A stretch of DNA of 17,645 nt. Source: Thermoplasmata archaeon (GTDB lineage Archaea > Thermoplasmatota > E2 > DHVEG-1). Below are positions 1,348 to 14,253 of the stretch, one piece after another (the first letter of the stretch is position 1; each line of letters starts with the position of its first letter). The position numbers were made by a program, and so were the translations under genes. The notes under the pieces are model-generated. The model was not told the origin of the DNA. It saw only the letters and a list, made by a program, of their open reading frames with translations, and did no database searches. The DNA lies in NCBI GenBank assembly GCA_030640585.1, contig DAOWIZ010000029.1, positions 1 to 17,645 of the forward strand, read 5' to 3'.

Positions 1348-1392
1348 TATTTTGCAAGTATGTAAATAAACTGGGTTTTATAACATTAAAGG

Positions 1393-1401
1393 TTATATAT
1401 A
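1393..1401 (+). promoter_or_regulatory. Candidate archaeal TATA box (TTATATATA, preceded by purine-rich AAAGG) for tRNA-Gln(CUG)/GlnRS
   Basis: TATA-like octamer in the divergent spacer between the CinA-like gene and the tRNA, about 40 nt upstream of the mature tRNA 5' end. Called on position and sequence only, against an AT-rich background. Confidence 0.3.
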
Positions 1402-1438: not shown

Positions 1439-1510
1439 AGCCCCGTAGTGTAGCGGTTAACATAAGAGACTCTGGATCTCTAGTCGCCAGTTCGAATCTG
1501 GCCGGGGCTG
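1439..1510 (+). tRNA. tRNA-Gln (anticodon CUG)
   Basis: Hand-folded cloverleaf. Acceptor stem AGCCCCG/CGGGGCT (A1-U72). D stem GTGT/ACAT. Anticodon stem AGAGA/TCTCT with loop CTCTGGA, giving anticodon CTG. T arm GCCAG-TTCGAAT-CTGGC. Discriminator G. No encoded CCA. Confidence 0.9.
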
Positions 1511-1544
1511 TGACTTACTCATTGGTTTGTTAGGTGAGATAATT

Positions 1545-3233
1545 ATGGATTCAAAAGAAAATGTATCTAAGGATTTCATACGTGAAATCATTGATGAGGA
1601 TTTGAAGACAAATAAATATGATGGTCGCGTACATACACGTTTTCCACCTGAGCCCAATGGTTATCTTCATATTGGTCATGCTAAATCTATTTGCCTGAAC
1701 TTTGGCATCGCTGGAGAATACAAGGGTTTGTGTAATCTTCGTTTTGATGATACTAATCCTGCAAAAGAGGAAGAGGAATACGTTAAATCAATTATCAATG
1801 ATGTTCAATGGCTAGGTTTTGATTGGGGTGATCGGCTTCTTTTTGCATCTGATTATTTTGATCAAATGTATAATTATGCTCTTGATCTAGTGAAAAAGGG
1901 AAAAGCCTATGTTGATGATCTAAGTGCTGAAGAAATCAGTTCCTATCGTGGTACTCTAACACATCCTGGAATAGACAGCCCACATCGCAATCGACCTATT
2001 GAAGAAAACATTGAACTATTTAAAAAAATGAAAGCAGGCGAGTTTGCAGATGGGAAAAAGGTTCTACGGGCAAAAATCGACATGTCTCATCCTAATTTGA
2101 ATATGCGTGATCCTATAATGTACAGAGTCCTGCATGCAAGCCATCATAGAACAAAAGATAAATGGTGTATTTATCCTATGTATGACTGGGCACACGGTCT
2201 TGAAGATTCTATTGAAAATATCACTCATTCTATTTGTACACTAGAGTTTGAAAACCATCGACCTTTGTATGATTGGTTCCTTGACAATCTTGGTGTTTAT
2301 CACCCGCAGCAGATAGAGTTTGCACGTCTTAATCTCACATATACTGTTATGAGTAAACGAATGCTGCTAGAACTGGTTGAAGAAAAACATGTCAAAGGAT
2401 GGAATGACCCGCGTCTACCAACAATTAGTGGAATGAGACAACGTGGTTATTCACCTGCATCAATTAGGAATTTCTGCAGTCGCATAGGTGTTGCAAAGGT
2501 AAATAGCATCGTTGATTTCGCATTTCTTGAATACTGTGTCAGAGAAGATTTGAATAAGACCTGTAATCGGTTTATGGGCGTTCTAAACCCATTAAAAGTA
2601 GTCATCGAGAACTATCCCAAGGACAAAGTAGAAGAGTTTGAAGCAGTAAACAATCCAGAAGACCCTAAAGCTGGGAAACGAAAAGTTCCATTTACTAAAG
2701 AACTATATATTGAACAAAATGATTTTATGGAAGACCCTCCAAAGAAGTTCTATCGATTGACACCAGGAAGAGAGGTAAGATTCAGATATTCATATCTAAT
2801 AACCTGTCAAGAAGCAATTAAAAAAGATGGAAAAATAGTAGAACTTCGTTGTACTATTGACCCAGAGACACACGGTGGCTATGCATCTGATGGACGACGT
2901 GTCAAATCAACAATTCACTGGGTTTCAGCACCTAATGCAATTGATGCAGAAGTCAATCTTTATGATAGATTGTTCACAGTAAAAAACCCTGCAGGTCAAA
3001 AAGATAAAAACTTCAAAGAATTCCTGAATCCTAAATCACTTGAGATACTCACAAACTGTAAAGTAGAGCCGGCCGTACAAAAGTTGAAACCGTTTGACAG
3101 ATTCCAATTTGAACGGCTTGGATATTTCTGCATAGACCAAAATACAACAGATAAAAAACTTATAATTAATAGAACTGTAACTCTCCGCGATACATGGGCA
3201 AAAATACAGAAACAGCAACAAAACAAAAAATAA
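1545..3233 (+). CDS. glnS: Glutaminyl-tRNA synthetase (class I, bacterial-type)
   Basis: Collinear along its whole length with E. coli GlnS as I recall it. Shared blocks include [26 protein letters not shown] (HIGH), [38 protein letters not shown] (KMSKS variant), GW.DPR.PTISG.R.RGY and FQFER.GYFC. I prefer the ATG at 1545, which has GGTGA 7 nt upstream, over the track's in-frame TTG at 1527. There is no eukaryote-type N-terminal extension. Confidence 0.93.
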
Positions 3234-3335
3234 AAAATTTTTACCAATAAAGATGAAAATTATAAATATTATACTTTTATTCCGGTCATTATCAACACCG
3301 TAACAATCAATAGATATAAATATCAAATTTTATTT

Positions 3336-3406
3336 AGCCCTGTGGTGTAGTGGTAACATACTGGCCTTTGGAGCCTGCGTCAGCGGTTCAAATCCGCTCA
3401 GGGCTG
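3336..3406 (+). tRNA. tRNA-Gln (anticodon UUG)
   Basis: Hand-folded cloverleaf. Acceptor stem AGCCCTG/CAGGGCT (A1-U72). D stem GTGT/ACAT. Anticodon stem CTGGC/GCCTG with one U-U mismatch, and loop CTTTGGA giving anticodon TTG. T arm AGCGG-TTCAAAT-CCGCT. Discriminator G. A T6 run follows at 3407-3412. Confidence 0.85.
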
Positions 3407-3418
3407 TTTTTTCCATTT

Positions 3419-3493
3419 GCTCCCGTGGTGTAGTCCGGTCAATCATTCCAGCCTTTCGAGCTGGCTACACGGGTTCGAATCCCGTCGGGAGCA
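3419..3493 (+). tRNA. tRNA-Glu (anticodon UUC)
   Basis: Hand-folded cloverleaf. Acceptor stem GCTCCCG/CGGGAGC. Anticodon stem CCAGC/GCTGG with loop CTTTCGA, giving anticodon TTC. T arm ACGGG-TTCGAAT-CCCGT. Discriminator A. The D-arm sequence GTGTAGTCCGGTCAATCAT is archaeal-looking. It starts 12 nt after tRNA-Gln(UUG). Confidence 0.9.
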
Positions 3494-4759
3494 TACCTCC
3501 GCACTCCTGTTGTTTCCATTCGAAACAGGGGTTTTTTCAGGTGTTTTTAAAATTAAGCCATTTTCTTGTCCCACATTATATGTATTTTTGTGGAATTTCA
3601 AGATGGCTTTAATCCAATCATAAGACGCATTGCGATAATATTGCTTTGCGTATCTTACATAATCCTCTGTTGTACCGACTTTGTCATGCCCAAGCCATTC
3701 TTTTACATCCCATATGTCCCAGTGTTTGGTTTCTACCTTGCTTTTGATTAGTCTTGCTATTGCACACCAGTGTCTCATTATGTATGGATGATAGTAGTTC
3801 CATACTGGTTTGACGTTTTGATTAAGATATTTTCCCAGATATGCTCTTGTGAATGGTCTACCATTTGGTTGTATATAGAGATAGTCTTCGCTGTATTGAT
3901 TTGCTACTTTTGGTCTCCAGTGTTCGATCCAGTTTTTCATACTTTTACGTCTGAGATTAGTCATTAGGTCTTTTTCTGGAAAAATCTGTCTCGGCTGTCC
4001 ATTCTTTTTTGACTCTGTAATAATGATATAGCCATCGTCAAGGAACACATCGCTTACTTTTTGAATTATTATTTCACTTGGTCTCCACCCTATTGTAAAA
4101 CCATGAGCTAAAATGTACTGTATCAGTGCGTTTTTGTATAGATTCTTTGAGTATTTATGCTGGATTAGTTGATAGGTTGTGTTTGGTAGTGGTACAATTT
4201 TTACTTTTGGTTTCGGCGGACTCGGTGGTATGTATCCCCAGAGTTTTGCATCTATTCCATATGCTTTTGCAAATGTTTTCACTGTTTTCCATTCATTGAT
4301 TATCTGAAATTTTCCTCTTTCGTTTTTGTATTCTTGGTATTCTTTGTATTCAAGATATGCTATGATCTGATTTGTGTTTAATTCAAACCAGTTTACTGGA
4401 AAAATGCTGTGTTCTGCCATTTTTTTAGCGTAGCGTAGCCTGTCTTTGATGGTTCTTTCGTTTTTTCTGTACTTAAATATCCACCAGTGTTTGATCGCGT
4501 CAAATAGTTCTTCTTGTGTTTCATATTGTTCTGGATCTATAATATATGGGTTTTTGATTTTTTCAACATCTAATTTTCTTATATTTTGCTTTGCTTCACC
4601 CATTTCCTCCACAACTGTTTGTGTGGTTTTTTGCTCGAAATGTTTTTGGCATATATTTTCTAAAATTTGTTTCCATTCTTGGTTTCTACCTCCTTTCAAT
4701 TCATTTTTTGGATTGGTTTGAATCGAATTGTATGTGTTGTTAATAGTTGTATTTATCAT
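3443..4759 (-). CDS. Tyrosine recombinase / phage-type integrase
   Basis: 438-aa ORF with a C-terminal catalytic domain. Motifs: GWRPSE (Arg I), YIMRHWCAIA (box with Arg II) and WLGHDKVGTTEDYVRY, which matches the XerC/D-like pattern LGH....TT..Y carrying the nucleophile Tyr. The last 51 nt (3443-3493) are antisense to tRNA-Glu. The stop codon TGA is the reverse complement of 3443-3445. Confidence 0.8.
   Translation of the reverse strand: MINTTINNTYNSIQTNPKNELKGGRNQEWKQILENICQKHFEQKTTQTVVEEMGEAKQNIRKLDVEKIKNPYIIDPEQYETQEELFDAIKHWWIFKYRKNERTIKDRLRYAKKMAEHSIFPVNWFELNTNQIIAYLEYKEYQEYKNERGKFQIINEWKTVKTFAKAYGIDAKLWGYIPPSPPKPKVKIVPLPNTTYQLIQHKYSKNLYKNALIQYILAHGFTIGWRPSEIIIQKVSDVFLDDGYIIITESKKNGQPRQIFPEKDLMTNLRRKSMKNWIEHWRPKVANQYSEDYLYIQPNGRPFTRAYLGKYLNQNVKPVWNYYHPYIMRHWCAIARLIKSKVETKHWDIWDVKEWLGHDKVGTTEDYVRYAKQYYRNASYDWIKAILKFHKNTYNVGQENGLILKTPEKTPVSNGNNRSAEVCSRRDSNPCSQLERLE
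3504..3537 (+). terminator. Hairpin plus T6 tract just downstream of tRNA-Glu
   Basis: CTCCTGTT (3504-3511) pairs with AACAGGGG (3524-3531), and TTTTTT follows at 3532-3537. The structure lies inside the C-terminal tail of the antisense integrase ORF. Confidence 0.4.
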
Positions 4760-4767
4760 ATTAGTAC

Positions 4768-4837
4768 CTATATTACACTTTACGTATTATGTAATACTCT
4801 AGGAGTATAAATACTTTACTATATTACACTTTTAGTA
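4768..4837. repeat. Two 19-nt direct repeats in the integrase/wHTH divergent spacer
   Basis: CTATATTACACTTTACGTA (4768-4786) and CTATATTACACTTTTAGTA (4819-4837) match at 17 of 19 positions, with starts 51 nt apart. Related TACGTA palindromes occur at 4781-4786 and 4886-4891. Confidence 0.6.
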
Positions 4838-4891
4838 ATATTGTAGTTTTTATGTAAAAATATATAATTTACTACTTTGTTACGGTACGTA

Positions 4892-5167
4892 ATGAGTAAT
4901 AAGATGGATGTCTTTGCAAAAGCAGGATCAACAGATATTTTGATTTCTCTTTTAAAACATAATAGCAAGATGTACGTAACTGAGTTAAAAGGAAAAATTG
5001 GCAAAGGAAGTATGTCTACATTAAACACAAGATTGCCTGAATTAAAAAATCAGGGATTAATCAAAGATGAACAAGAGAGTAAATTTGGTGGTCGTAGATA
5101 CATTTGGCTCACTGATAAAGGTCAAAAAGTAGCAAAGCATCTATTAGAAATTGAAAAAGTATTATAG
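4892..5167 (+). CDS. Small winged-helix DNA-binding protein (ArsR/MarR-like), element-associated
   Basis: About 91 aa from the ATG at 4892; the track's TTG at 4877 is in-frame upstream. The pattern ILISLL....MYVTELKGKIG.GSMSTLNTRLPELKNQGLI...RRYIWLTDKG fits an HTH followed by a beta-wing. The gene is divergent from the integrase. Confidence 0.6.
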   Translation: MSNKMDVFAKAGSTDILISLLKHNSKMYVTELKGKIGKGSMSTLNTRLPELKNQGLIKDEQESKFGGRRYIWLTDKGQKVAKHLLEIEKVL

Positions 5168-5809: not shown

Positions 5810-6242
5810 AAAAAACTAGGTTTAATCGGTAAAAATCTTATTAGATGAAAACTTTGTAAATTTTACTTTTTAGTTGAAATTTCCGTGGATAATGGTTTTT
5901 TGTTATTCAATTTCACAGGAATCCTATAGTAGTGTTTATGAATTTTATTTTTCTACTATATTCTAAGGGTTTGCCCCTAACGAGGTGACAAATGGGACCA
6001 AAAAAGAAAAAGGGAAAAAAGGATAAGAAATAAAAATTGAGATACCTCTGCTCCTATCCATCATGTTCATTTTAGGCAGCGGATTTTTTAATTAAAGTGA
6101 TCCTGGAGGGCGGATAACGGTTTTTCCTCCTCCGCTCTCAACTTTAAATTATTTACTATAAAAAAAGCGCGGTTTTAACTGATCATTATTCTATCGATTA
6201 TAGAGATGTATTTATAAAAATCACTCTCATAAAAAATGATAT

Positions 6243-7190
6243 TCAATATATAACAAAAGGAATATCTAATTTTTCAACTATTTCTTTATATCGATTCCGA
6301 ACAGTTACTTCGGTAACACCTGCGACATCAGCAACCTCTCGTTGTGTTCGTCGTTCTCCACAAAGAACTGATGCGATGTACAAAGATGCTGCAGCGTTTC
6401 CTGTTGGCCCTCGCCCAGTAATCAATGCTTTCTCGGCTGCAAGTTTTAATATCTCCATTGTCTTGACTTGAACTTCATTACTAAGTTTTAATTCACTGCA
6501 GAACCGAGAAATATAATCCTCAGGCAAAGTAGGAAGGAGCTTCAGTTTGAGTTCCTTTGCAATAAACCGGTAGTTTTTCCCAATTTCTTTTCTTTTAATA
6601 CGAGATATCTCACTCATCTCATCTAACGTCCGTGGTATATGACATTGCCGACATGCTGCATATAATGCTGCTGCAGCAACACCTTCGATGCTTCTACCAC
6701 GTATAAGATTTTTCATTGCTGACTTTCGATAAATCATGGCAGCTGTTTCACGAACTACTCTAGGAAGCCCCAAACTAGAAGCCAGCCGATCCAGATTAGA
6801 CAATGCAAGTGCAAGGTTTCTCTCAGTGCCATCTGCTATACGTATTCGACGTTGCCATTTTCTAAGTCGGTATAACTGTGCACGATTTCTAGTTGGAATC
6901 GTTTTTCCGTATGAATCTTTGTTACTCCAATCAATTTCAGTGCTTAATCCTTTATCATGAATTGTATATGTCATGGGTGTACCAGTACGCGACCTTTTTT
7001 CCCGTTGATCTCCATCGAATGCGCGCCATTCAGGCCCATGATCAATAAAATCTTCATCTATTACAAGACCACAGTCCTCACACACCAACTCAGCTCTTGA
7101 ATAATCTTTTGACAGGTGGGTGCTCCCACATCCAGGGCATCGAACAATTTCTTCGATACTTTGTTTTTCTTTTTTAGCTAAGTAAATCAA
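6243..7190 (-). CDS. tfb: Transcription initiation factor IIB (TFB)
   Basis: N-terminal Zn ribbon CPGCGS...VCEDCG, then GPEWRAFD, B-linker and two cyclin-fold repeats ([57 protein letters not shown]). It is collinear with Pyrococcus TFB as I recall it. The only in-frame start is the TTG at 7190, so the start call is less certain than the gene call. Confidence 0.93.
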
Positions 7191-7345: not shown

Positions 7346-8416
7346 ATGAAAATCAAATCAATTTCAGCTTACCCGTTAGACCTTAGATTAAAAGAGCCTT
7401 TCGTAATTGCAAATGAGACAATGGAAATAGGTGAAAATGTTTTTTTTAAAATTGAAACTGATGAAGACATTACTGGATGGGGTTGTGCAACACCAGACAG
7501 TGTTACATCTGAAACAAAAGATACTGTAATTGATAATTTCAATAAAATAGTTAAAAATATTTTAATTGGACAGGATCCAACAAGAATCCATTTTTTAAAT
7601 GATGTTATTGAAGATAAAATAAAGGGTAATCCTTCGTTAAGAGCAGGTATTAATATGGCTCTTTATGATATTCTTGGAAAGAAGGCAGATATGCCCTTAT
7701 TTAGACTTCTTGGAGGGTATAGAGATAAAATTGAAACCTCTATAACAATTGGTTTGAACCCAGTTGATGTCATGGTAGAAAAAGCCAAGGAACTTGTTTC
7801 TCAAGGATTTACTTGTCTCAAAGTAAAATGTGGAATGGATCCAGACCAAGATATTGAAGTAGTACTTGCGATAAGGAGCACAGTTGGCCCAAATATAAAA
7901 ATCCGCTTAGATGCAAATGAGGGTTACACTCTTGAAAAAGCCTTACGTGTGATTGAAACACTCGAGAAACTAGGAACAGATATCGAAATGCTTGAACAAC
8001 CAACTCCAGCTAAATATTTATATGCTTTAAAGGAAGTAACAGCACAATGTCCAGTTCCGATCATGGCTGATGAAACAGCTCTTACTCTTAGAGACAGTCT
8101 TAAAACCGTTAAAATGGAAATAGCAGATATGATTAATATTAAACTTATGAAAATCGGAGGGATTACAAACGCCATCAAAGCAAACACTTATGCAGAAATT
8201 GCAGAAATTCCTGTGATGATAGGTTGTATGAATGAATCAATGGGCGCTATGGCCGCGGGGGTACATTTTGCCTGTGCTTTTAAAAATGTACAATATGCTG
8301 ACTTAGATTCTGCCTTAGATTTTGAAAAAGATATAGTAAAAGGCGGAGCTACTTATAAAGATGGATTTGTCATTCCATCAAATAAACCAGGACTAGGAAT
8401 AGAGGTTGATTTGTAA
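7346..8416 (+). CDS. Enolase-superfamily racemase/epimerase (dipeptide epimerase / N-acyl-amino-acid racemase-like, MLE subgroup)
   Basis: 356-aa ORF with KxK (CLKVKCG), metal ligands in RLDANEGY, LEQP and MADE, and a second catalytic Lys in NIKLMKIGG. This is the MR/MLE pattern seen in L-Ala-D/L-Glu epimerases. Confidence 0.85.
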   Translation: MKIKSISAYPLDLRLKEPFVIANETMEIGENVFFKIETDEDITGWGCATPDSVTSETKDTVIDNFNKIVKNILIGQDPTRIHFLNDVIEDKIKGNPSLRAGINMALYDILGKKADMPLFRLLGGYRDKIETSITIGLNPVDVMVEKAKELVSQGFTCLKVKCGMDPDQDIEVVLAIRSTVGPNIKIRLDANEGYTLEKALRVIETLEKLGTDIEMLEQPTPAKYLYALKEVTAQCPVPIMADETALTLRDSLKTVKMEIADMINIKLMKIGGITNAIKANTYAEIAEIPVMIGCMNESMGAMAAGVHFACAFKNVQYADLDSALDFEKDIVKGGATYKDGFVIPSNKPGLGIEVDL

Positions 8417-9766
8417 GTGAAAAAAAGTTATAATGATGTTCTTGATGATGTTCCATCTTATAGTCGTTTTTTAAAGGTAGATGAAATTGATAATTTAGTG
8501 AATCTAATAATAAAATTACCTGGTGTAAAACATAAGGTTATAGGCAAGTCATTAAACGATGAACCACTAGTAATGCTTGATATTGGAAAAGGGGAAAAAA
8601 CTGCATTGATAATTGGAGTGCCTCATAGCGATGAACCACTCGGTAGTTTGGTTATAACATTTTTTTCTCGTTGGCTTGCAACGCATCCTGAAAAAGAAAA
8701 TTTTGGTTGGAGATGGCTATTCATACCTATGCTTGAAAGACGAGGAATGCGACTAAATGAGGGATGGTTCAATATGCCCGAGTCATTAGCAGATATGGCA
8801 AAATCTAATTTTAGAGAACCAACTGAGGATCAATATGAATGGACATTTCCAATTCAATATAACGATTATGAATGGACAAAATCTAGACCCGAAACAATTG
8901 CTGTAAAAAATGTACTTGAGCAAGAAAAACCAGATCTGTTATGCAACCTTCATCATTGTGGTTTTCATAATGCATATTATTATCTTAGTGAAGATTTTCC
9001 TGAAATTTATCCTAAACTAAGGAAACTTGCATCTAATCTAAGAATGTCTTTATCAGATACAGCACCTGATGTTCCATTTGGAAAAATGTTTTCCCCAGGT
9101 TTTTATCAGATGTATGGATTAAAGGATTATCTTGATTATTATAGTAAAAAAGATCCAATTGTATTAACTACAATAAAAAGAGGTGCCTGTAGTGACGAAT
9201 GGTATCAAAAACAAATTGGAGGGTTCAGTTTCAACTGTGAAGTACCAATGTATTTATCATCAAAACTACAGGATATAAAACCATCAGATAAAAGTTATAA
9301 AAAAGTAATGGAAGGACGTTATCGTATAAAGAAAAATAGACTAAAATACTCAATCAGACTAATAAACATTATAAAAGACTATTCAGACCTAGCCGATCCC
9401 CTTCTTCTAAATGTTGCTGAAAAACATATAGCAAATGCCCAAAACTCTTTAGACCATGAAAAAAGAGCTTTAAAGGTTACTGAAGGCAAAATAGCATCAA
9501 ATGCAGAAGTTTTTGAAAATGAAGTAATTGTAGATTTATTTGGCATATTCTTTCTTGGCCAAATATGGCGTGTCGCAGAAAGCATTTGTATTAAAGGTAG
9601 TACTCCTACAATATGTCAATTAATGGAAACAGCAGATATTGAAATTAAATCTCTCGGAAAAAGTGTCGAAGAAAGAGGAGCGTTTTATCATATCCCGATA
9701 CGAAATTCAGCAAAAATGCAACTGGGAAGCATCTTGCTCATATCTGATGCATTAAAAAGAAAATAA
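8417..9766 (+). CDS. M14 carboxypeptidase / AstE-AspA-like zinc hydrolase family protein (putative)
   Basis: 449-aa ORF. Its GTG start immediately follows the epimerase stop (TAAGTG), with GAGGT 10 nt upstream. It carries an HxxE zinc motif in IIGVPHSDEPLGS and a distal His in CNLHHCGF. The assignment rests on motifs only. Confidence 0.55.
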   Translation: MKKSYNDVLDDVPSYSRFLKVDEIDNLVNLIIKLPGVKHKVIGKSLNDEPLVMLDIGKGEKTALIIGVPHSDEPLGSLVITFFSRWLATHPEKENFGWRWLFIPMLERRGMRLNEGWFNMPESLADMAKSNFREPTEDQYEWTFPIQYNDYEWTKSRPETIAVKNVLEQEKPDLLCNLHHCGFHNAYYYLSEDFPEIYPKLRKLASNLRMSLSDTAPDVPFGKMFSPGFYQMYGLKDYLDYYSKKDPIVLTTIKRGACSDEWYQKQIGGFSFNCEVPMYLSSKLQDIKPSDKSYKKVMEGRYRIKKNRLKYSIRLINIIKDYSDLADPLLLNVAEKHIANAQNSLDHEKRALKVTEGKIASNAEVFENEVIVDLFGIFFLGQIWRVAESICIKGSTPTICQLMETADIEIKSLGKSVEERGAFYHIPIRNSAKMQLGSILLISDALKRK

Positions 9767-9767
9767 T

Positions 9768-9850
9768 CTCCCCTTCCCTAATTATTCATAAGTATACGAT
9801 GAATAACTCTCTGCTGGGGAGGTAGATGTTGATCTTCGAGCTACTTTTTT
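9768..9850 (+). terminator. Nested hairpin plus T6 tract downstream of the epimerase/hydrolase pair
   Basis: Outer stem CTCCCC (9768-9773) pairs with GGGGAG (9816-9821). Inner stem TTATTCAT (9782-9789) pairs with ATGAATAA (9799-9806). TTTTTT lies at 9845-9850, and a second small hairpin plus T6 lies at 9871-9895. Confidence 0.35.
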
Positions 9851-10128
9851 ATAAGGACAATGTTCAAACACAACATTAGGTGTTGCACGTTTTTTCACAA
9901 GATTTTGTAGTTTCTTCGTATAATCTTCTTTGCATTTATTCTTATTCTCCTGCATGGTTCTCTCCTATATATGTTCATTCTTCCTCTTATGAGAAGATGA
10001 TATTCTGTAATATTGTATCTGCCTCTGTTTCTATTTATATGGTTTTTGGTATAAAATATCAAAATGGCATTTTATCATTAATTTGGTTTCATGGAAACCT
10101 TTTTGAACGCCCTCCAGATGCGGCCATT

Positions 10129-10602
10129 ATGTATGATGCTGGTGTTATCCGAAGAGCAACAATCCATGATCTCCCAGAGATTATAAAGTTGGAACAGAAA
10201 TGCTTTCACACGAATAGTGCATATACTCCCAAGCAATTGCTCTATCTCATCACTCGAGCTAATAGCAATTGCCTATTACAGCAACTAAACCATTCTATTC
10301 AAGGGTCCATTATTGTACTGTATAAACAAGGATCAGAAGTTGCCGGCATCGAAACCATAAGTGTCGATCCTCATTGTCGCGGTCAAGGCATTGGGAAAAG
10401 ACTCCTTGGCGCCGCTGAGAAGGACATGATATACAGAGGGATACAAAAAATCCGTCTCGAAGTTTCTATCGGAAATTTCCCAGCAATACAACTCTATCAA
10501 AAATCCGGTTTTAGAATAACAACGATTTTAAAGGACTATTACACCTATGAGAAATATGGCAGTCATGATGCGTATCGAATGATTAGAGAATTAACTACGT
10601 AG
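10129..10602 (+). CDS. GNAT family N-acetyltransferase (RimI-like)
   Basis: The acetyl-CoA binding core reads ISVDPHCRGQGIGKRLL, with downstream LEVSIGNFPAIQLYQKSGF. I place the start at the ATG at 10129, giving 157 aa. The track's upstream 83 aa from the GTG at 9880 are hydrophobic junk with no GNAT-like sequence. Confidence 0.8.
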   Translation: MYDAGVIRRATIHDLPEIIKLEQKCFHTNSAYTPKQLLYLITRANSNCLLQQLNHSIQGSIIVLYKQGSEVAGIETISVDPHCRGQGIGKRLLGAAEKDMIYRGIQKIRLEVSIGNFPAIQLYQKSGFRITTILKDYYTYEKYGSHDAYRMIRELTT

Positions 10603-12045
10603 CACTTCTTTCTCATTTTTATGAACAGAAACCCAGTTGTTATCATCAAGAACACAATATCCTAAAGTATATTGCTCCAAGATATGCAAAAGTTGTTTTC
10701 TGAGATGAAATGGAATGAGCGAGAGATCGCATGTTTCTTTGTTCATATGAATTTTTTCCACATGATCAACAGGTTTATAATTTTGATTATTACCTATAAG
10801 ATAAAAAGAATGATTTTTCTCATCCTGATCAAGTCTTAATTTTAATGGATCAACCTGACTCAGAAAAGATTCAATATTTTCGTTTTTAAAGTTCATTATT
10901 TTTGGATTTGCTTTATTAGCTAATAGAAAAAGTAAAACACCCATACATTTTGAACATGTTCCACATGGTACAATCCTATTATTTTCAAAATGACATGAAT
11001 GGCATGATCGTTGAAACCTTGCAAGTTTCGGGTAATGCTTAACAAGTATTTTTTCCACAACTAAGCCAGATATATTTCTAACTGCTGACCATTGATGCAA
11101 ATCGGGTATTCTTTTAGTATACCAATTATTCATAATATTATCATAATCCTGATGTTGGTCATATATTCCATAAAAATGTTTAATTCCAAGATATTCTAGA
11201 GTGGATCTTAAATCATCAAATTCACTACCAATAAGAAGATTGCCTATTTTTTTATCAACAAATATTGGTAATAACAAAAAAACATAAAATGGAAAAATGC
11301 ACAATCGAATGGGATACGTATCAGCCCATATTTTCCTATGATCAGATCTGATAAATTTTAAATTATCAAGCATAAAAACATAAAATCGGTCAACATTTGT
11401 CCAAACACGATAAGTGTTTGAATCAATTTTTTTATGATATCTATAAGCAGGAATAGCAGTTCTCCAGTGGCCTCCACTTTCATTTATATACAAAGGATAT
11501 GTATTGCATCCTATCTCATTTAATAGACCATAGGTTAAAAGGCTTTCTTTACCCCCGCTAGAGAGAATACCACAGCTATTCTTGTCCACATCTGGTGAAA
11601 TTATTTTATCATTGTAAACTTGAGATGGTTCAATTATTGCTTTTGAATTAGCATCCTCAGGTTTTACATCTTCTTGTTTCGGAAGGAAATCTGAAAGAAT
11701 ATAGTTAGTTCTTCTTCGCAGTATCTTATTTACAAAAATATCTCTGCTAAAAATTCTATTTAACTCGTTTAAAATATTATAATCTGTTTTACTTATGGGA
11801 AAATTCAATTTGAACTTTTTTGAAAATAAACCATAATTTAAAAGTGGCATTGTAAAAGCAAGTCGTAATAGTGGAAGAGAGTCATCTTTAACTTTTTCTT
11901 GATATTTTAGCATAATTGAAAAAGCAGATTCATCGCCCTCTGTTTTATTTAGAAATATATTTGTTTTAACACTTTTACCATTAATTATTGGTTCTGAAAT
12001 TTCAATTGAAGAAAAGCAAACCATATCAGGTATTTTACCTGACAT
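10591..12045 (-). CDS. Uncharacterised PP-loop (adenine nucleotide alpha-hydrolase) superfamily protein with C-terminal Cys cluster
   Basis: PP-loop-like CGILSSGGKESLLTYG sits mid-protein. A QueC-like cluster CHSCH-x9-CGTCSKC lies near the C-terminus. I place the start at the ATG at 12045, preceded by GGAGGA at 6-nt spacing. This start overlaps the upstream DUF1611 gene by 11 nt. Confidence 0.7.
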   Translation of the reverse strand: MSGKIPDMVCFSSIEISEPIINGKSVKTNIFLNKTEGDESAFSIMLKYQEKVKDDSLPLLRLAFTMPLLNYGLFSKKFKLNFPISKTDYNILNELNRIFSRDIFVNKILRRRTNYILSDFLPKQEDVKPEDANSKAIIEPSQVYNDKIISPDVDKNSCGILSSGGKESLLTYGLLNEIGCNTYPLYINESGGHWRTAIPAYRYHKKIDSNTYRVWTNVDRFYVFMLDNLKFIRSDHRKIWADTYPIRLCIFPFYVFLLLPIFVDKKIGNLLIGSEFDDLRSTLEYLGIKHFYGIYDQHQDYDNIMNNWYTKRIPDLHQWSAVRNISGLVVEKILVKHYPKLARFQRSCHSCHFENNRIVPCGTCSKCMGVLLFLLANKANPKIMNFKNENIESFLSQVDPLKLRLDQDEKNHSFYLIGNNQNYKPVDHVEKIHMNKETCDLSLIPFHLRKQLLHILEQYTLGYCVLDDNNWVSVHKNEKEVLRS

Positions 12046-13084
12046 TAAGTTCCTCCAAAAAATCAACGATTTTACTAACACTGTCACTCAAAGGTTCAAT
12101 TACAGGGACATTGAAAAATTTCTTCAGTTTTATTTTTGCATTTTTAATATCTTGTTTATCCATATTCTCACGATTTATACCTATTCCTAATAAGGGTTTC
12201 TCAGTTAGTATCTCTGCAATTTTGACAACCCTCTGAGGATCTGGCATTGGATAGTCTGGAAAACCATCAAGATGAGGTCTTTTTGGAGCATCAACAAGTA
12301 TAAAACCATCTATTTTCCCAGCAGCTAATATCTCAAAACCACCTGGGAAAAAAGGATGGACTAGACTTCCTTGTCCTTCAATAATTATAATATCTGGTCT
12401 TAAATCATTCCAAGAATCAATAATTGCACCTTCGATTCCGCCAGCCACAAAATCATTAATCATAGCATCAAGGACAATACCATGAGGCCAACCCTGGATC
12501 CACCCAGTTTGGCCAGTATATACCATGTCAGTTTTTCTACCTCTTTTCTTTAGTTCTTCATTTATCATAACTGCTATAGTTCTTTTCCCAATAGCAGAAT
12601 CAGTTCCCAAAATTGCAATACGAGTTGATTTAACATCTTTGATATTACCTGTATAAAATCTTTTATGATCACGAAATATCTTTCTTACATCTGTAATTAT
12701 ACAATCATTTTTTTTTGCGAGTTTTTCAAACACAGGATCTTCTGATATGAACTGATGAAGACCAGATACAACATCGAGACCTTTTTCAAGAGCCCAAATA
12801 ACAGCTTTATCATAGCCTTCAGGTAAAACACCTCCCTCTGAGACAGCTCCAATAATAAAAGTATTTACATCTGATTTACTATATGCTTTACCAAGATCAT
12901 TATAAAGAGGTATATTTCTTTTTATACCATCTAAAATTTCACCTGAATCACCTTCAATAAGTGTAGTATCAACAACACATGTTACATCAAATCTTTTACT
13001 ATATCTAACAAGACCATGAGCAGTTTTTCCATCAGCGCAATTAAAAAGCCGATCTGCGTAAACAATAGCACGTTTTTTAGACAT
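12035..13084 (-). CDS. DUF1611 family P-loop protein (DgcN-like)
   Basis: 349 aa, the typical DUF1611 length. Remembered family blocks are present: AHGLVRY, VSGLH, a Walker-A-like ILGTDSAIGKRT, TGQTGWIQG and IIEGQGSLVHP. The ATG at 13084 is preceded by GGGGGGAGGT. Confidence 0.78.
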   Translation of the reverse strand: MSKKRAIVYADRLFNCADGKTAHGLVRYSKRFDVTCVVDTTLIEGDSGEILDGIKRNIPLYNDLGKAYSKSDVNTFIIGAVSEGGVLPEGYDKAVIWALEKGLDVVSGLHQFISEDPVFEKLAKKNDCIITDVRKIFRDHKRFYTGNIKDVKSTRIAILGTDSAIGKRTIAVMINEELKKRGRKTDMVYTGQTGWIQGWPHGIVLDAMINDFVAGGIEGAIIDSWNDLRPDIIIIEGQGSLVHPFFPGGFEILAAGKIDGFILVDAPKRPHLDGFPDYPMPDPQRVVKIAEILTEKPLLGIGINRENMDKQDIKNAKIKLKKFFNVPVIEPLSDSVSKIVDFLEELNVR

Positions 13085-13122
13085 TACCTCCCCCCAAACT
13101 CTAATTTGAATTTAAACGTAAT

Positions 13123-14253
13123 TTACTTTCTCCCCGTCAAAATAATAACATATCGATCATTAGGTAATGGATCTTTTTTATGTTTTTCTAAAAGTGCAAT
13201 AAGACCGGCAGTGGAAGCAGGTAACACACTAAGTCCCTCTTTTTCCCGTAGTTTTTTCGAAAAAAACATCATATTTTTATCACTAGCATAAGCACCCCAT
13301 CCACCAGATTCTCTAATAGCCTCAAGAGCATAATCACCATCAATAGAACGCCAGTTAATCAAAGGTTCATTGATGGCAGTTTCATGAATTTTTTTTGGAG
13401 ATAGATCCTCACAAGCAGAAAGATTTTTCAAAAAGGCTTGAATAATAGGGTTTTTTCCAAAAGATGAGCCAGCTATTATCCTAGGAATCTTAGATGTTTT
13501 ACCACGTCTATAAAGACTAACAAAACCTTTGTACACTCCAGCAAGGGTAGTACCATTAGAAACAGGCATTGCCACAACAGCTGGTGCATCACGCAATTCA
13601 TCATAAATCTCATAGGCTATCTCACCATATGCACGGAGTTGAATCATAGTATTCTCCCCGCCAGCATTAGCATCATAATACTCTTTTTTATCAGCCATTT
13701 CCTGAGAGACGTTCACCGCGTTTTCATAATCTCCAGTTACACGAATAATTCTTGCACCATTCTCTTCAATTTCTTTAATTCTACTGGTATGATATTTTTC
13801 AGGGATATATATCTCACATTCTATCCCTGAAATAGCTGCAGCAAGAGAAATTGCAGCTCCATAATTTCCACAAGTAGCAACGGTAACAGTATCGTAACCT
13901 CTTCTTAATGCATCCATAACTTGAGCAAAAGCAATACGATCTTTCTGAGTACCCGTTGGTGTTGTTCCTTCGAATTTTAAAAAAATTTGACGAAGACCAA
14001 ACTCACGTTCAATATTTCGAGCACGAGTAAGATTAGTGTCACCAATCTCAGAGTCAATAATGTCCTCCAAAGCTTCTAATCTTTCTTCTAGAGGTCGGGT
14101 TGTATTAGTAGCGATTTTTCTCTGAGACTCAAGATCTAGTGCAATAAGTGGAAACTGAGAACGAGCACCATCTAAAATAGATAAGATAGGTTCATCGTTA
14201 CTATTATTTACGGTTTTTACATTGTTATTGTTTTTTTGTTTTTTTTCATGCAT
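13123..14253 (-). CDS. PLP-dependent enzyme, fold type II (threonine synthase / Trp-synthase-beta-like)
   Basis: PLP-lysine block LKFEGTTPTGTQKDRIA (compare NPTGSFKDR). Also ATCGNYGAA, SNGTTLAG and a C-terminal ILTGRK. About 80 aa at the N-terminus, including a poly-Asn stretch, have no match I recognise. It sits 38 nt upstream of the DUF1611 gene on the same strand. Confidence 0.82.
   Translation of the reverse strand: MHEKKQKNNNNVKTVNNSNDEPILSILDGARSQFPLIALDLESQRKIATNTTRPLEERLEALEDIIDSEIGDTNLTRARNIEREFGLRQIFLKFEGTTPTGTQKDRIAFAQVMDALRRGYDTVTVATCGNYGAAISLAAAISGIECEIYIPEKYHTSRIKEIEENGARIIRVTGDYENAVNVSQEMADKKEYYDANAGGENTMIQLRAYGEIAYEIYDELRDAPAVVAMPVSNGTTLAGVYKGFVSLYRRGKTSKIPRIIAGSSFGKNPIIQAFLKNLSACEDLSPKKIHETAINEPLINWRSIDGDYALEAIRESGGWGAYASDKNMMFFSKKLREKEGLSVLPASTAGLIALLEKHKKDPLPNDRYVIILTGRK

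Follow-up and report, generated by a model that had tools for sequence, protein, structure and literature searches.

The locus described here raises the question of how a bacterial-type glutaminyl-tRNA synthetase (GlnRS) gene, glnS, became established among the tRNA-Gln genes of an archaeon. Reviews from 2008 to 2022 state that all or "almost all" archaea are without GlnRS. They give A73 as the archaeal norm of tRNA-Gln and G73 as the bacterial one, and the failure of the E. coli and yeast enzymes to charge archaeal tRNA-Gln is offered there as the reason why archaea never acquired GlnRS. The stretch of DNA analyzed (the window; 17,645 nt of contig DAOWIZ010000029.1, assembly GCA_030640585.1) belongs to a Thermoplasmata archaeon (Thermoplasmatota; E2; DHVEG-1), and its scaffold was obtained from a South China Sea cold-seep metagenome. 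The tRNA genes were called by ARAGORN and by Infernal with the Rfam model RF00005 (gathering score, 29 bits); the ARAGORN boundaries were one base longer at each end. Together with the list of open reading frames (ORFs), these calls gave the + strand order tRNA-Gln(CUG), glnS, tRNA-Gln(UUG), and tRNA-Glu(UUC). A preliminary description of the window had reported the same order on one strand of an archaeal contig, and all three sets of calls agreed with it. Its tRNA boundaries coincided with those of Rfam (64.3, 63.4, and 61.1 bits), and its placement of the glnS start 35 nt past the end of tRNA-Gln(CUG) was reproduced, with G73 at position 1510, the ATG at 1545, and a 34-nt spacer between them. 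The reading that we favor, and hold to be probable, is that an acquired bacterial GlnRS charges archaeal tRNA-Gln retuned to G73, and that an older A73 copy is being lost.

Profile searches showed that the 562-aa product of glnS scored 739.3 bits against TIGR00440 (glnS; curated cut-off, 425.8 bits), with positions 1-524 of the 524 in the profile covered, and 854 bits against NF011291 (curated cut-off, 681 bits), with positions 8-566 matched. The Pfam domain PF00749 (tRNA-synt_1c) and both anticodon-binding domains, PF03950 and PF20974, were found. Among the PDB structures, the highest scores were 710 bits for the P. aeruginosa GlnRS and about 702 for the E. coli GlnRS, followed by 409-472 for the eukaryotic GlnRS (human, 472; yeast, 419). 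The glutamyl-tRNA synthetases (GluRS) reached at most 279 bits, and the archaeal (Methanothermobacter) GluRS 180. A grouping of the enzyme with GluRS was therefore not seen, and its earlier assignment to the bacterial type was confirmed by the TIGR00440 score, the PDB scores, and its position in the tree described below. The protein was then aligned with the E. coli GlnRS, 156 bacterial homologues, and 13 other archaeal homologues. In E. coli numbering, R30, E34, the HIGH motif (H40 and H43), D66, Y211, S227, C229, Q255, M268-S269-K270, R341, R402, R410, R412, Q517, and R520 were all conserved in the window protein. The residues for glutamine binding, the HIGH and MSK motifs, and the anticodon-binding residues did not vary among the sequences compared, 14 of them archaeal and about 156 bacterial. 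We take R30, Y211, C229, and Q255 to be the glutamine-selecting residues and R341, R402, R410, R412, Q517, and R520 to be the anticodon-reading ones, as in the E. coli GlnRS. Residues specific to the archaeal clade were found at only six positions in the whole protein. Judged by its sequence, the protein is an ordinary bacterial-type GlnRS, already labelled glutaminyl-tRNA synthetase by JGI and NCBI, and glutamine-specific charging of tRNA-Gln is predicted for it.

The archaeal GlnRS sequences shared 78% identity or more with the window protein, and the next matches, at 70-72%, lay on bacterial contigs. One contig of the 70-72% group (L093; loci are given by such numbers below) carried LepA and HemW. 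At L098 and L101 a bacterial-type gltX stood directly upstream of glnS, and L155 was a bacterial contig with an Omp28-related protein. Among the GTDB species-genome matches listed, only bacteria were found, at 61-69% identity. A neighbor-joining tree of 171 sequences was computed from 556 alignment columns, with Kimura distances and 200 bootstraps; eukaryotic GlnRS were not included. The archaeal GlnRS were monophyletic in 200/200 bootstraps. In 200/200 they were also nested among bacteria, with E. coli and at least 50 bacteria falling outside the smallest clade that joined the archaea with some bacteria. The best sister group of the archaeal sequences had 38% support, so that the exact donor was not fixed by the tree; the nearest named relatives among the matches listed were Pirellulales/planctomycete, Sumerlaeota, and Chloroflexi metagenome-assembled genomes (MAGs). 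Because the archaeal sequences are monophyletic and nested inside the bacterial GlnRS, the tree indicates one old transfer of glnS from a bacterium to an archaeon followed by vertical descent, and the horizontal acquisition proposed in the preliminary description was borne out.

The host of the gene is archaeal. The window contig carries TFB (6243-7190, - strand, 504 bits to NF001658), and a thermosome-like ORF runs past its 3' end. The best 120 of 8000 scored metagenome GlnRS matches were 80-98% identical to the window protein. The TFB homologues of the hosts, labelled "Thermoplasmatales archaeon" by NCBI, had a similar identity spread (75-93%), which fits a glnS descending together with the genome. 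Around glnS, about 20 kb was read per genome, in 14 distinct related loci. The module tRNA-Gln(CUG)-glnS-tRNA-Gln(UUG) was present in them wherever the flanks were long enough, except at L086, which was without the upstream tRNA-Gln(CUG). The closed 1.82 Mb "Thermoplasmatales archaeon" chromosome CP070712 is among these loci, and at least three loci of the archaeal clade (L086, L087, and L129) were among the JGI metagenome matches listed. Two contexts of synteny were found. In the first, as in the window, PHO4/PhoU-Metallophos-(RtcA)-CinA lay upstream of the module; in the second, as in the closed genome, GGR lay upstream and DUF5654-PEPCK downstream. The GC content of glnS was 0.369 and that of its third codon positions (GC3) 0.268, with the nearest bacterial loci at 43-55% GC, and its codon-usage cosine to the other genes of the window was 0.958, joint highest in the window. 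The comparison of codon usage and GC proposed at the outset thus gave a match with the window genes. On its native composition, its presence in the 14 related loci, and its occurrence in at least two unrelated genomic contexts, glnS is to be regarded as fully ameliorated, transferred long ago and inherited vertically since.

The identity elements of the two tRNA-Gln genes were read from the Rfam alignments. Both carry A1-U72, G2-C71, C3-G70, G10, U35, G36, and G73. An archaeal tRNA body with A1-U72 combined with the bacterial elements G73, G2-C71, and G10 had been noted before, and each of these elements was found in both genes. The E. coli-type identity set of tRNA-Gln consists of G73, a weak 1:72 pair, G2-C71, G3-C70, G10, U35, and G36 (PMC13433404). 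The 3:70 pair of the window genes, a point missing from the preliminary description, is C3-G70 instead of the G3-C70 of the E. coli set. Their 1:72 pair is weak but the reverse (A1-U72) of the E. coli U1-A72, and they have G37/A38 in place of the E. coli determinants A37/U38. The canonical archaeal tRNA-Gln has A1:U72, A73, and C12:G23 (PMC9499178); the window genes have G73 in place of A73 and, by the Rfam alignment, G12-C23 in the D-stem in place of C12:G23. In the related loci, G73, G10, and A1-U72 were found in every tRNA-Gln of the module. Wherever a related locus had sufficient flank upstream, a tRNA-Gln(CUG) with G73 preceded glnS, again except at L086, and an intact tRNA-Gln(UUG) with G73 stood downstream in 13/13 related loci with a downstream flank.

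A tRNA-Gln(CUG) gene also adjoins glnS in seven bacterial relatives (L008, L013, L019, L031, L037, L053, and L072), so that glnS and tRNA-Gln are linked outside the archaeal clade as well. These bacterial tRNAs were rejected as the source of the module tRNAs, given their U1-A72, their different acceptor stems, and, in some, an encoded CCA. The cluster would instead be archaeal, since A1-U72 is present throughout, the tRNA-Glu is of archaeal style, and at L086 (6908-7037) the tRNA-Glu(UUC) 3' of the module is interrupted at the canonical position 37/38 by an intron of 55 nt, unlike its intron-less orthologues in the window and the other loci. By these features, the module tRNA-Gln genes are archaeal in origin with a bacterial-type discriminator. 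As in the window, the tRNA-Glu(UUC) came after tRNA-Gln(UUG) in L083, L129, L167, L168, L174, L175, and L176. Scans of viral contigs with the tRNA-Gln 3' ends gave no match or an unrelated phage tRNA array; two IMG/VR viral contigs with unrelated arrays of about 35 tRNA genes (L172, 6418-11327; L173, 63-4623) were matched by chance through a tRNA-Glu 3' end.

In some relatives, a third tRNA-Gln gene was found. Between glnS and the G73 copy, L129, L168, and L175 hold an intact tRNA-Gln(UUG) with A73 (53-58 bits), and L087 holds one that is cut by the contig end. This paralogue has A1-U72, A73, and U10, and its D-arm and anticodon stem resemble those of the adjacent tRNA-Glu. Compensatory changes between loci occurred in its anticodon and T stems, so that, with scores of 53-58 bits, the intact copies appear to be functional. 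The copies of L174 and L176, still with A73, were damaged (43-44 bits), with an anticodon loop of 5-6 nt without UUG, and were labelled "Asn(AUU)" and "???" by ARAGORN. The gene was absent in eight loci (the window, L082, L083, L085, L086, L166, L167, and L169), and the alignment of the window spacer at 3234-3335 with the A73 tRNA was too weak to call a remnant. On the GlnRS tree, the pattern was patchy, and the sister of the window, L174, holds a damaged copy, which implies that the loss of the A73 tRNA-Gln(UUG) is repeated and ongoing.

The arrangement of the module also bears on its expression (Table 1). The motif AAAGGTTA(A/T)ATA was found at an equal distance 5' of tRNA-Gln(CUG) in most of 10 related loci compared. 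The spacer between tRNA-Gln(CUG) and glnS measured 28-42 nt in nine related loci, with a GGTGA-like motif before the ATG in most of them and no conserved TATA box within the spacer in these nine. The shared 5' BRE/TATA-like motif (BRE, TFB recognition element) and the short spacer with its Shine-Dalgarno-like motif suggest a single transcript, and tRNA-Gln(CUG) and glnS are probably transcribed together. In the related loci, an A/T-rich ACTATATAT element was found 5' of tRNA-Gln(UUG). In one sublineage (L083, 8973-10000; L084, 150-1053), two small ORFs on the opposite strand (229 and 73 aa), with no Pfam match, lie between tRNA-Gln(CUG) and glnS and break the otherwise tight spacing of 28-42 nt. 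A scan of the window for sigma-70 promoters and intrinsic terminators was uninformative, as expected in an archaeon.

Table 1. Positions of the features of the glnS locus and the neighboring recombinase gene in the window.
Feature	Position	Strand	Evidence and remarks
Promoter-like element AAAGGTTATATATA (BRE/TATA-like)	1388..1401	+	About 40 nt 5' of tRNA-Gln(CUG); archaeal type, putative function
tRNA-Gln(CUG)	1439..1510	+	Rfam RF00005 64.3 bits, ARAGORN; A1-U72, G2-C71, C3-G70, G10, G73; no encoded CCA
Spacer, 34 nt	1511..1544	+	Shine-Dalgarno-like AGGTGAG at 1532-1538
glnS, bacterial-type GlnRS, 562 aa	1545..3233	+	TIGR00440 739 bits; without YqeY or eukaryotic N-terminal extension
TATA-like GATATAAATA 5' of tRNA-Gln(UUG)	3313..3322	+	Read from the sequence; putative
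tRNA-Gln(UUG)	3336..3406	+	Rfam 63.4 bits; A1-U72, G2-C71, C3-G70, G10, G73; one U28-U42 mismatch
tRNA-Glu(UUC)	3419..3493	+	Rfam 61.1 bits; G1-C72, A73, enlarged D-loop; no encoded CCA
Tyrosine recombinase, 438 aa	3443..4759	-	Pfam Phage_integrase 40 bits; XerA/XerC-like matches

Taken together, the following history is proposed. The ancestor of a large group of uncultured Thermoplasmatota from sediments (NCBI "Thermoplasmatales archaeon") would have received a bacterial glnS, which would have come to sit inside a tRNA-Gln/tRNA-Glu gene cluster and been inherited vertically since. This clade may be, or lie near, the marine benthic group MBG-D/Thermoprofundales, a placement suggested only by its habitat and a gene content rich in C25, PKD, and NosD. 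The GlnRS, produced from one transcript with tRNA-Gln(CUG), would attach glutamine directly to the two flanking G73/G10 isoacceptors. G73 and G10, which are needed by the E. coli-type GlnRS, together with the retained weak A1-U72 pair, would remove the tRNA barrier to the enzyme. The A73/U10 tRNA-Gln(UUG) with its tRNA-Glu-like D-arm would probably be the tRNA used by the native GluRS/GatDE route, and would now be dispensable. The assignment of each tRNA to its enzyme is inferred, as is a causal tie of G73 to GlnRS. The decay of the A73 copy suggests that the indirect route is becoming dispensable, and the data fit a replacement of the indirect glutamine pathway by GlnRS that is still under way. 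A fuller form of this idea, which we regard as possible though not the likelier outcome, is a part-way replacement in which two identity sets exist side by side, or did so until recently. The G73/G10 set would serve GlnRS and the A73/U10 set GluRS/GatDE, with the second set and, as predicted, GatDE lost independently in different sublineages. No gatD or gatE Pfam domains were found in the stretches of about 20 kb around glnS of the related loci. The supplementary tables of two Thermoprofundales papers held no glnS entry and a single entry for a gatE transcript.

Several points weigh against the favored reading. The tree is a neighbor-joining tree without eukaryotic sequences, and its low sister-group support leaves the donor unfixed. 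The E. coli determinants G3-C70, A37, and U38 are absent from the module tRNA-Gln. Not every bacterial GlnRS system has G73, as the tRNA-Gln genes beside glnS in Bacteroidales have A73. All loci compared carry glnS, and G73 could predate the transfer. A duplicate of the A73 copy at another place in those genomes might suffice to explain its loss. The replacement of the indirect route is presumptive, and a gatE transcript is listed for one Thermoprofundales MAG, although the place of the clade in that order is itself conjectural.

Some of these points lend themselves to a different explanation, in which GlnRS is a redundant addition: the route through the non-discriminating GluRS (ND-GluRS) and GatDE would still be the main or an equal one, the G73 tRNAs would serve both routes, and G73 would be a quirk of the lineage. 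GatDE is reported to read A1:U72 and the D-loop (PMC9499178), and A1-U72 is kept in all module tRNAs. The gatE transcript of the Thermoprofundales MAG and the A73 of the Bacteroidales tRNA-Gln, according to which some bacterial GlnRS do without G73, point the same way, and some bacteria are reported to keep both routes (PMC4206432). Nevertheless, glnS and both G73 tRNAs are strictly conserved, whereas decay of the A73 copy has occurred repeatedly. G10 and the loss of the tRNA-Glu-like D-arm are confined to the G73 tRNAs, which would be unexpected if GluRS must still recognize them. We therefore consider a merely redundant enzyme unlikely, and the charging of the G73 tRNAs by GlnRS remains the preferred reading.

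The preliminary description had further connected the acquisition of the module with an integrase at a tRNA hotspot. The 3' end of the tyrosine recombinase gene overlaps the 3' half of tRNA-Glu, its last ~17 codons being the reverse complement of that half, an arrangement typical of a tRNA-targeting element. At L083, a different integrase follows the tRNA-Glu. The glnS-tRNA module might thus have been brought recently as cargo of an integrative element at tRNA-Glu. This origin was not supported, and we judge it very improbable. The integrase is missing from most related loci that have the module, including the closed genome, and the upstream synteny of CinA/Metallophos/PHO4 is kept. Its gene is placed beyond the module, past tRNA-Glu, and the window was found to hold no further copy of the tRNA-Glu 3' end (attachment site, att) with up to three mismatches allowed. 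Moreover, glnS is compositionally native, and the integrase is the outlier, with the lowest codon-usage cosine in the window (0.856). Upstream of the recombinase, a 23-nt direct repeat (4768-4790 and 4819-4841) is followed by an HxlR-like winged-helix gene (4877-5167), and the region 3443-5167 looks like the remnant of an integrated element, inserted separately from the module and later.

It is just as improbable that the protein is no working GlnRS but a GluRS-like or tRNA-modifying paralogue, or the product of a decaying gene. Nothing specific speaks for this beyond one substitution: all archaeal GlnRS copies have N at the position of E. coli D235 (window residue 237), and D235N is carried by 1qrs, a mutant chain with relaxed specificity. 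N235 is, however, common to 27% of the sampled bacterial homologues, including the nearest, Planctomycete-like ones. The architecture is full length, all catalytic and anticodon-binding residues tested are in place, and strong conservation of the sequence is seen in many homologues from metagenomes. N235 as an archaeal adaptation to C3-G70 was also ruled out, as the nearest bacterial homologues have N too; by the same comparison, N235 is taken to have arrived with the transferred gene. The Bacteroidales GlnRS have V at position 235, and their adjacent tRNA-Gln have C3-G70 together with A73; across bacteria, residue 235 may change in concert with the 3:70 pair. Finally, the 61-72% identity of the protein to many bacterial GlnRS among the matches listed could suggest a bacterial glnS fragment joined to archaeal DNA by assembly or binning, but such a chimera is excluded for practical purposes by the same junctions recurring in independent ENA, JGI, NCBI, and Logan assemblies and in the closed 1.82 Mb chromosome, by the position of glnS between archaeal-type tRNAs, and by the uniform GC of the region.

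Two other features of the window were noted. The cluster at 7346-14253 encodes an MR/MLE-family epimerase (L-Ala-D/L-Glu epimerase-like), an M14-like peptidase, a GNAT acetyltransferase, a 498-aa protein without family match, a DUF1611/DgcN-like protein, and a pyridoxal-phosphate (PLP)-dependent enzyme, and may represent a pathway for the use of D-glutamate or cell-wall peptides. Within AT-rich intergenic DNA, the GC-rich segment at 6050-6145 (+) forms a stable hairpin set (-27.7 kcal/mol, z = -3.1) with no Rfam match.

The interest of the locus lies in the archaeal host and the tRNAs and not in the enzyme. The novelty first attributed to the arrangement stood in part: as glnS is vertically inherited and routinely annotated, the arrangement is ordinary within its lineage, whereas an apparently widespread clade of sediment archaea with a bacterial GlnRS contradicts the reviews up to 2022. 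In the literature searched, no paper linked Thermoplasmatota with GlnRS or reported a G73 tRNA-Gln in archaea. The 25-year-old hypothesis of a tRNA barrier becomes open to direct experiment, and the part-way replacement, if true, would be the first natural demonstration of crossing the tRNA barrier to GlnRS in archaea. The module would be a case from nature in which a synthetase and its tRNAs have adapted to each other once the gene had moved between domains, which bears on the evolution of the genetic-code machinery and on the design of orthogonal synthetase/tRNA pairs.

Compared with known systems, the locus shares features with both the bacterial and the archaeal way of making Gln-tRNA. Relative to the archaeal indirect pathway (ND-GluRS and GatDE), the tRNA bodies are alike in A1-U72, and the A73 tRNA-Gln(UUG) persists in some relatives; the differences are the presence of GlnRS, the conserved tRNA-Gln with G73, and the decay of the A73 gene. 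The best-scoring NCBIfam model, NF011291, describes the Deinococcus-type fusion of GlnRS with YqeY. The GlnRS core is alike over positions 8-566, but the C-terminal YqeY (GatB-like) domain (567-769 of 769) is missing, and the window protein ends at 562. NCBI names the relative P0043 after this model, and "fusion protein" in that name is an over-annotation. Heimdallarchaeia are another archaeal group with a glutamine-tRNA ligase gene (bioRxiv 10.1101/2024.07.04.601786), which is mentioned there in passing as a cox neighbor, without tRNA analysis. The archaeon HMET1 resembles the present case in having two discriminators in one genome, as its two PylRS/tRNA-Pyl pairs are told apart by G73 versus A73 (PMC9499178). 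There, however, the enzymes are PylRS paralogues with demonstrated orthogonality, whereas here GlnRS would be set against GluRS/GatDE. With the bacterial GlnRS-tRNA-Gln system (E. coli glnS; PDB 1GTS, 1QTQ, and 1O0B), the enzyme shares its domain architecture at about 700 bits and the key residues, and the tRNAs share G73, the weak 1:72 pair, G2-C71, G10, U35, and G36. It differs from that system in the archaeal host, in the A1-U72, C3-G70, and G37/A38 of the tRNAs and their lack of an encoded CCA, and in the N at the D235 position, which it has in common with its Planctomycete-like nearest relatives. The enzyme family is already known; what is new is the system, in which a foreign synthetase is combined with native tRNAs that have been retuned and with a tRNA of the old type in decay.

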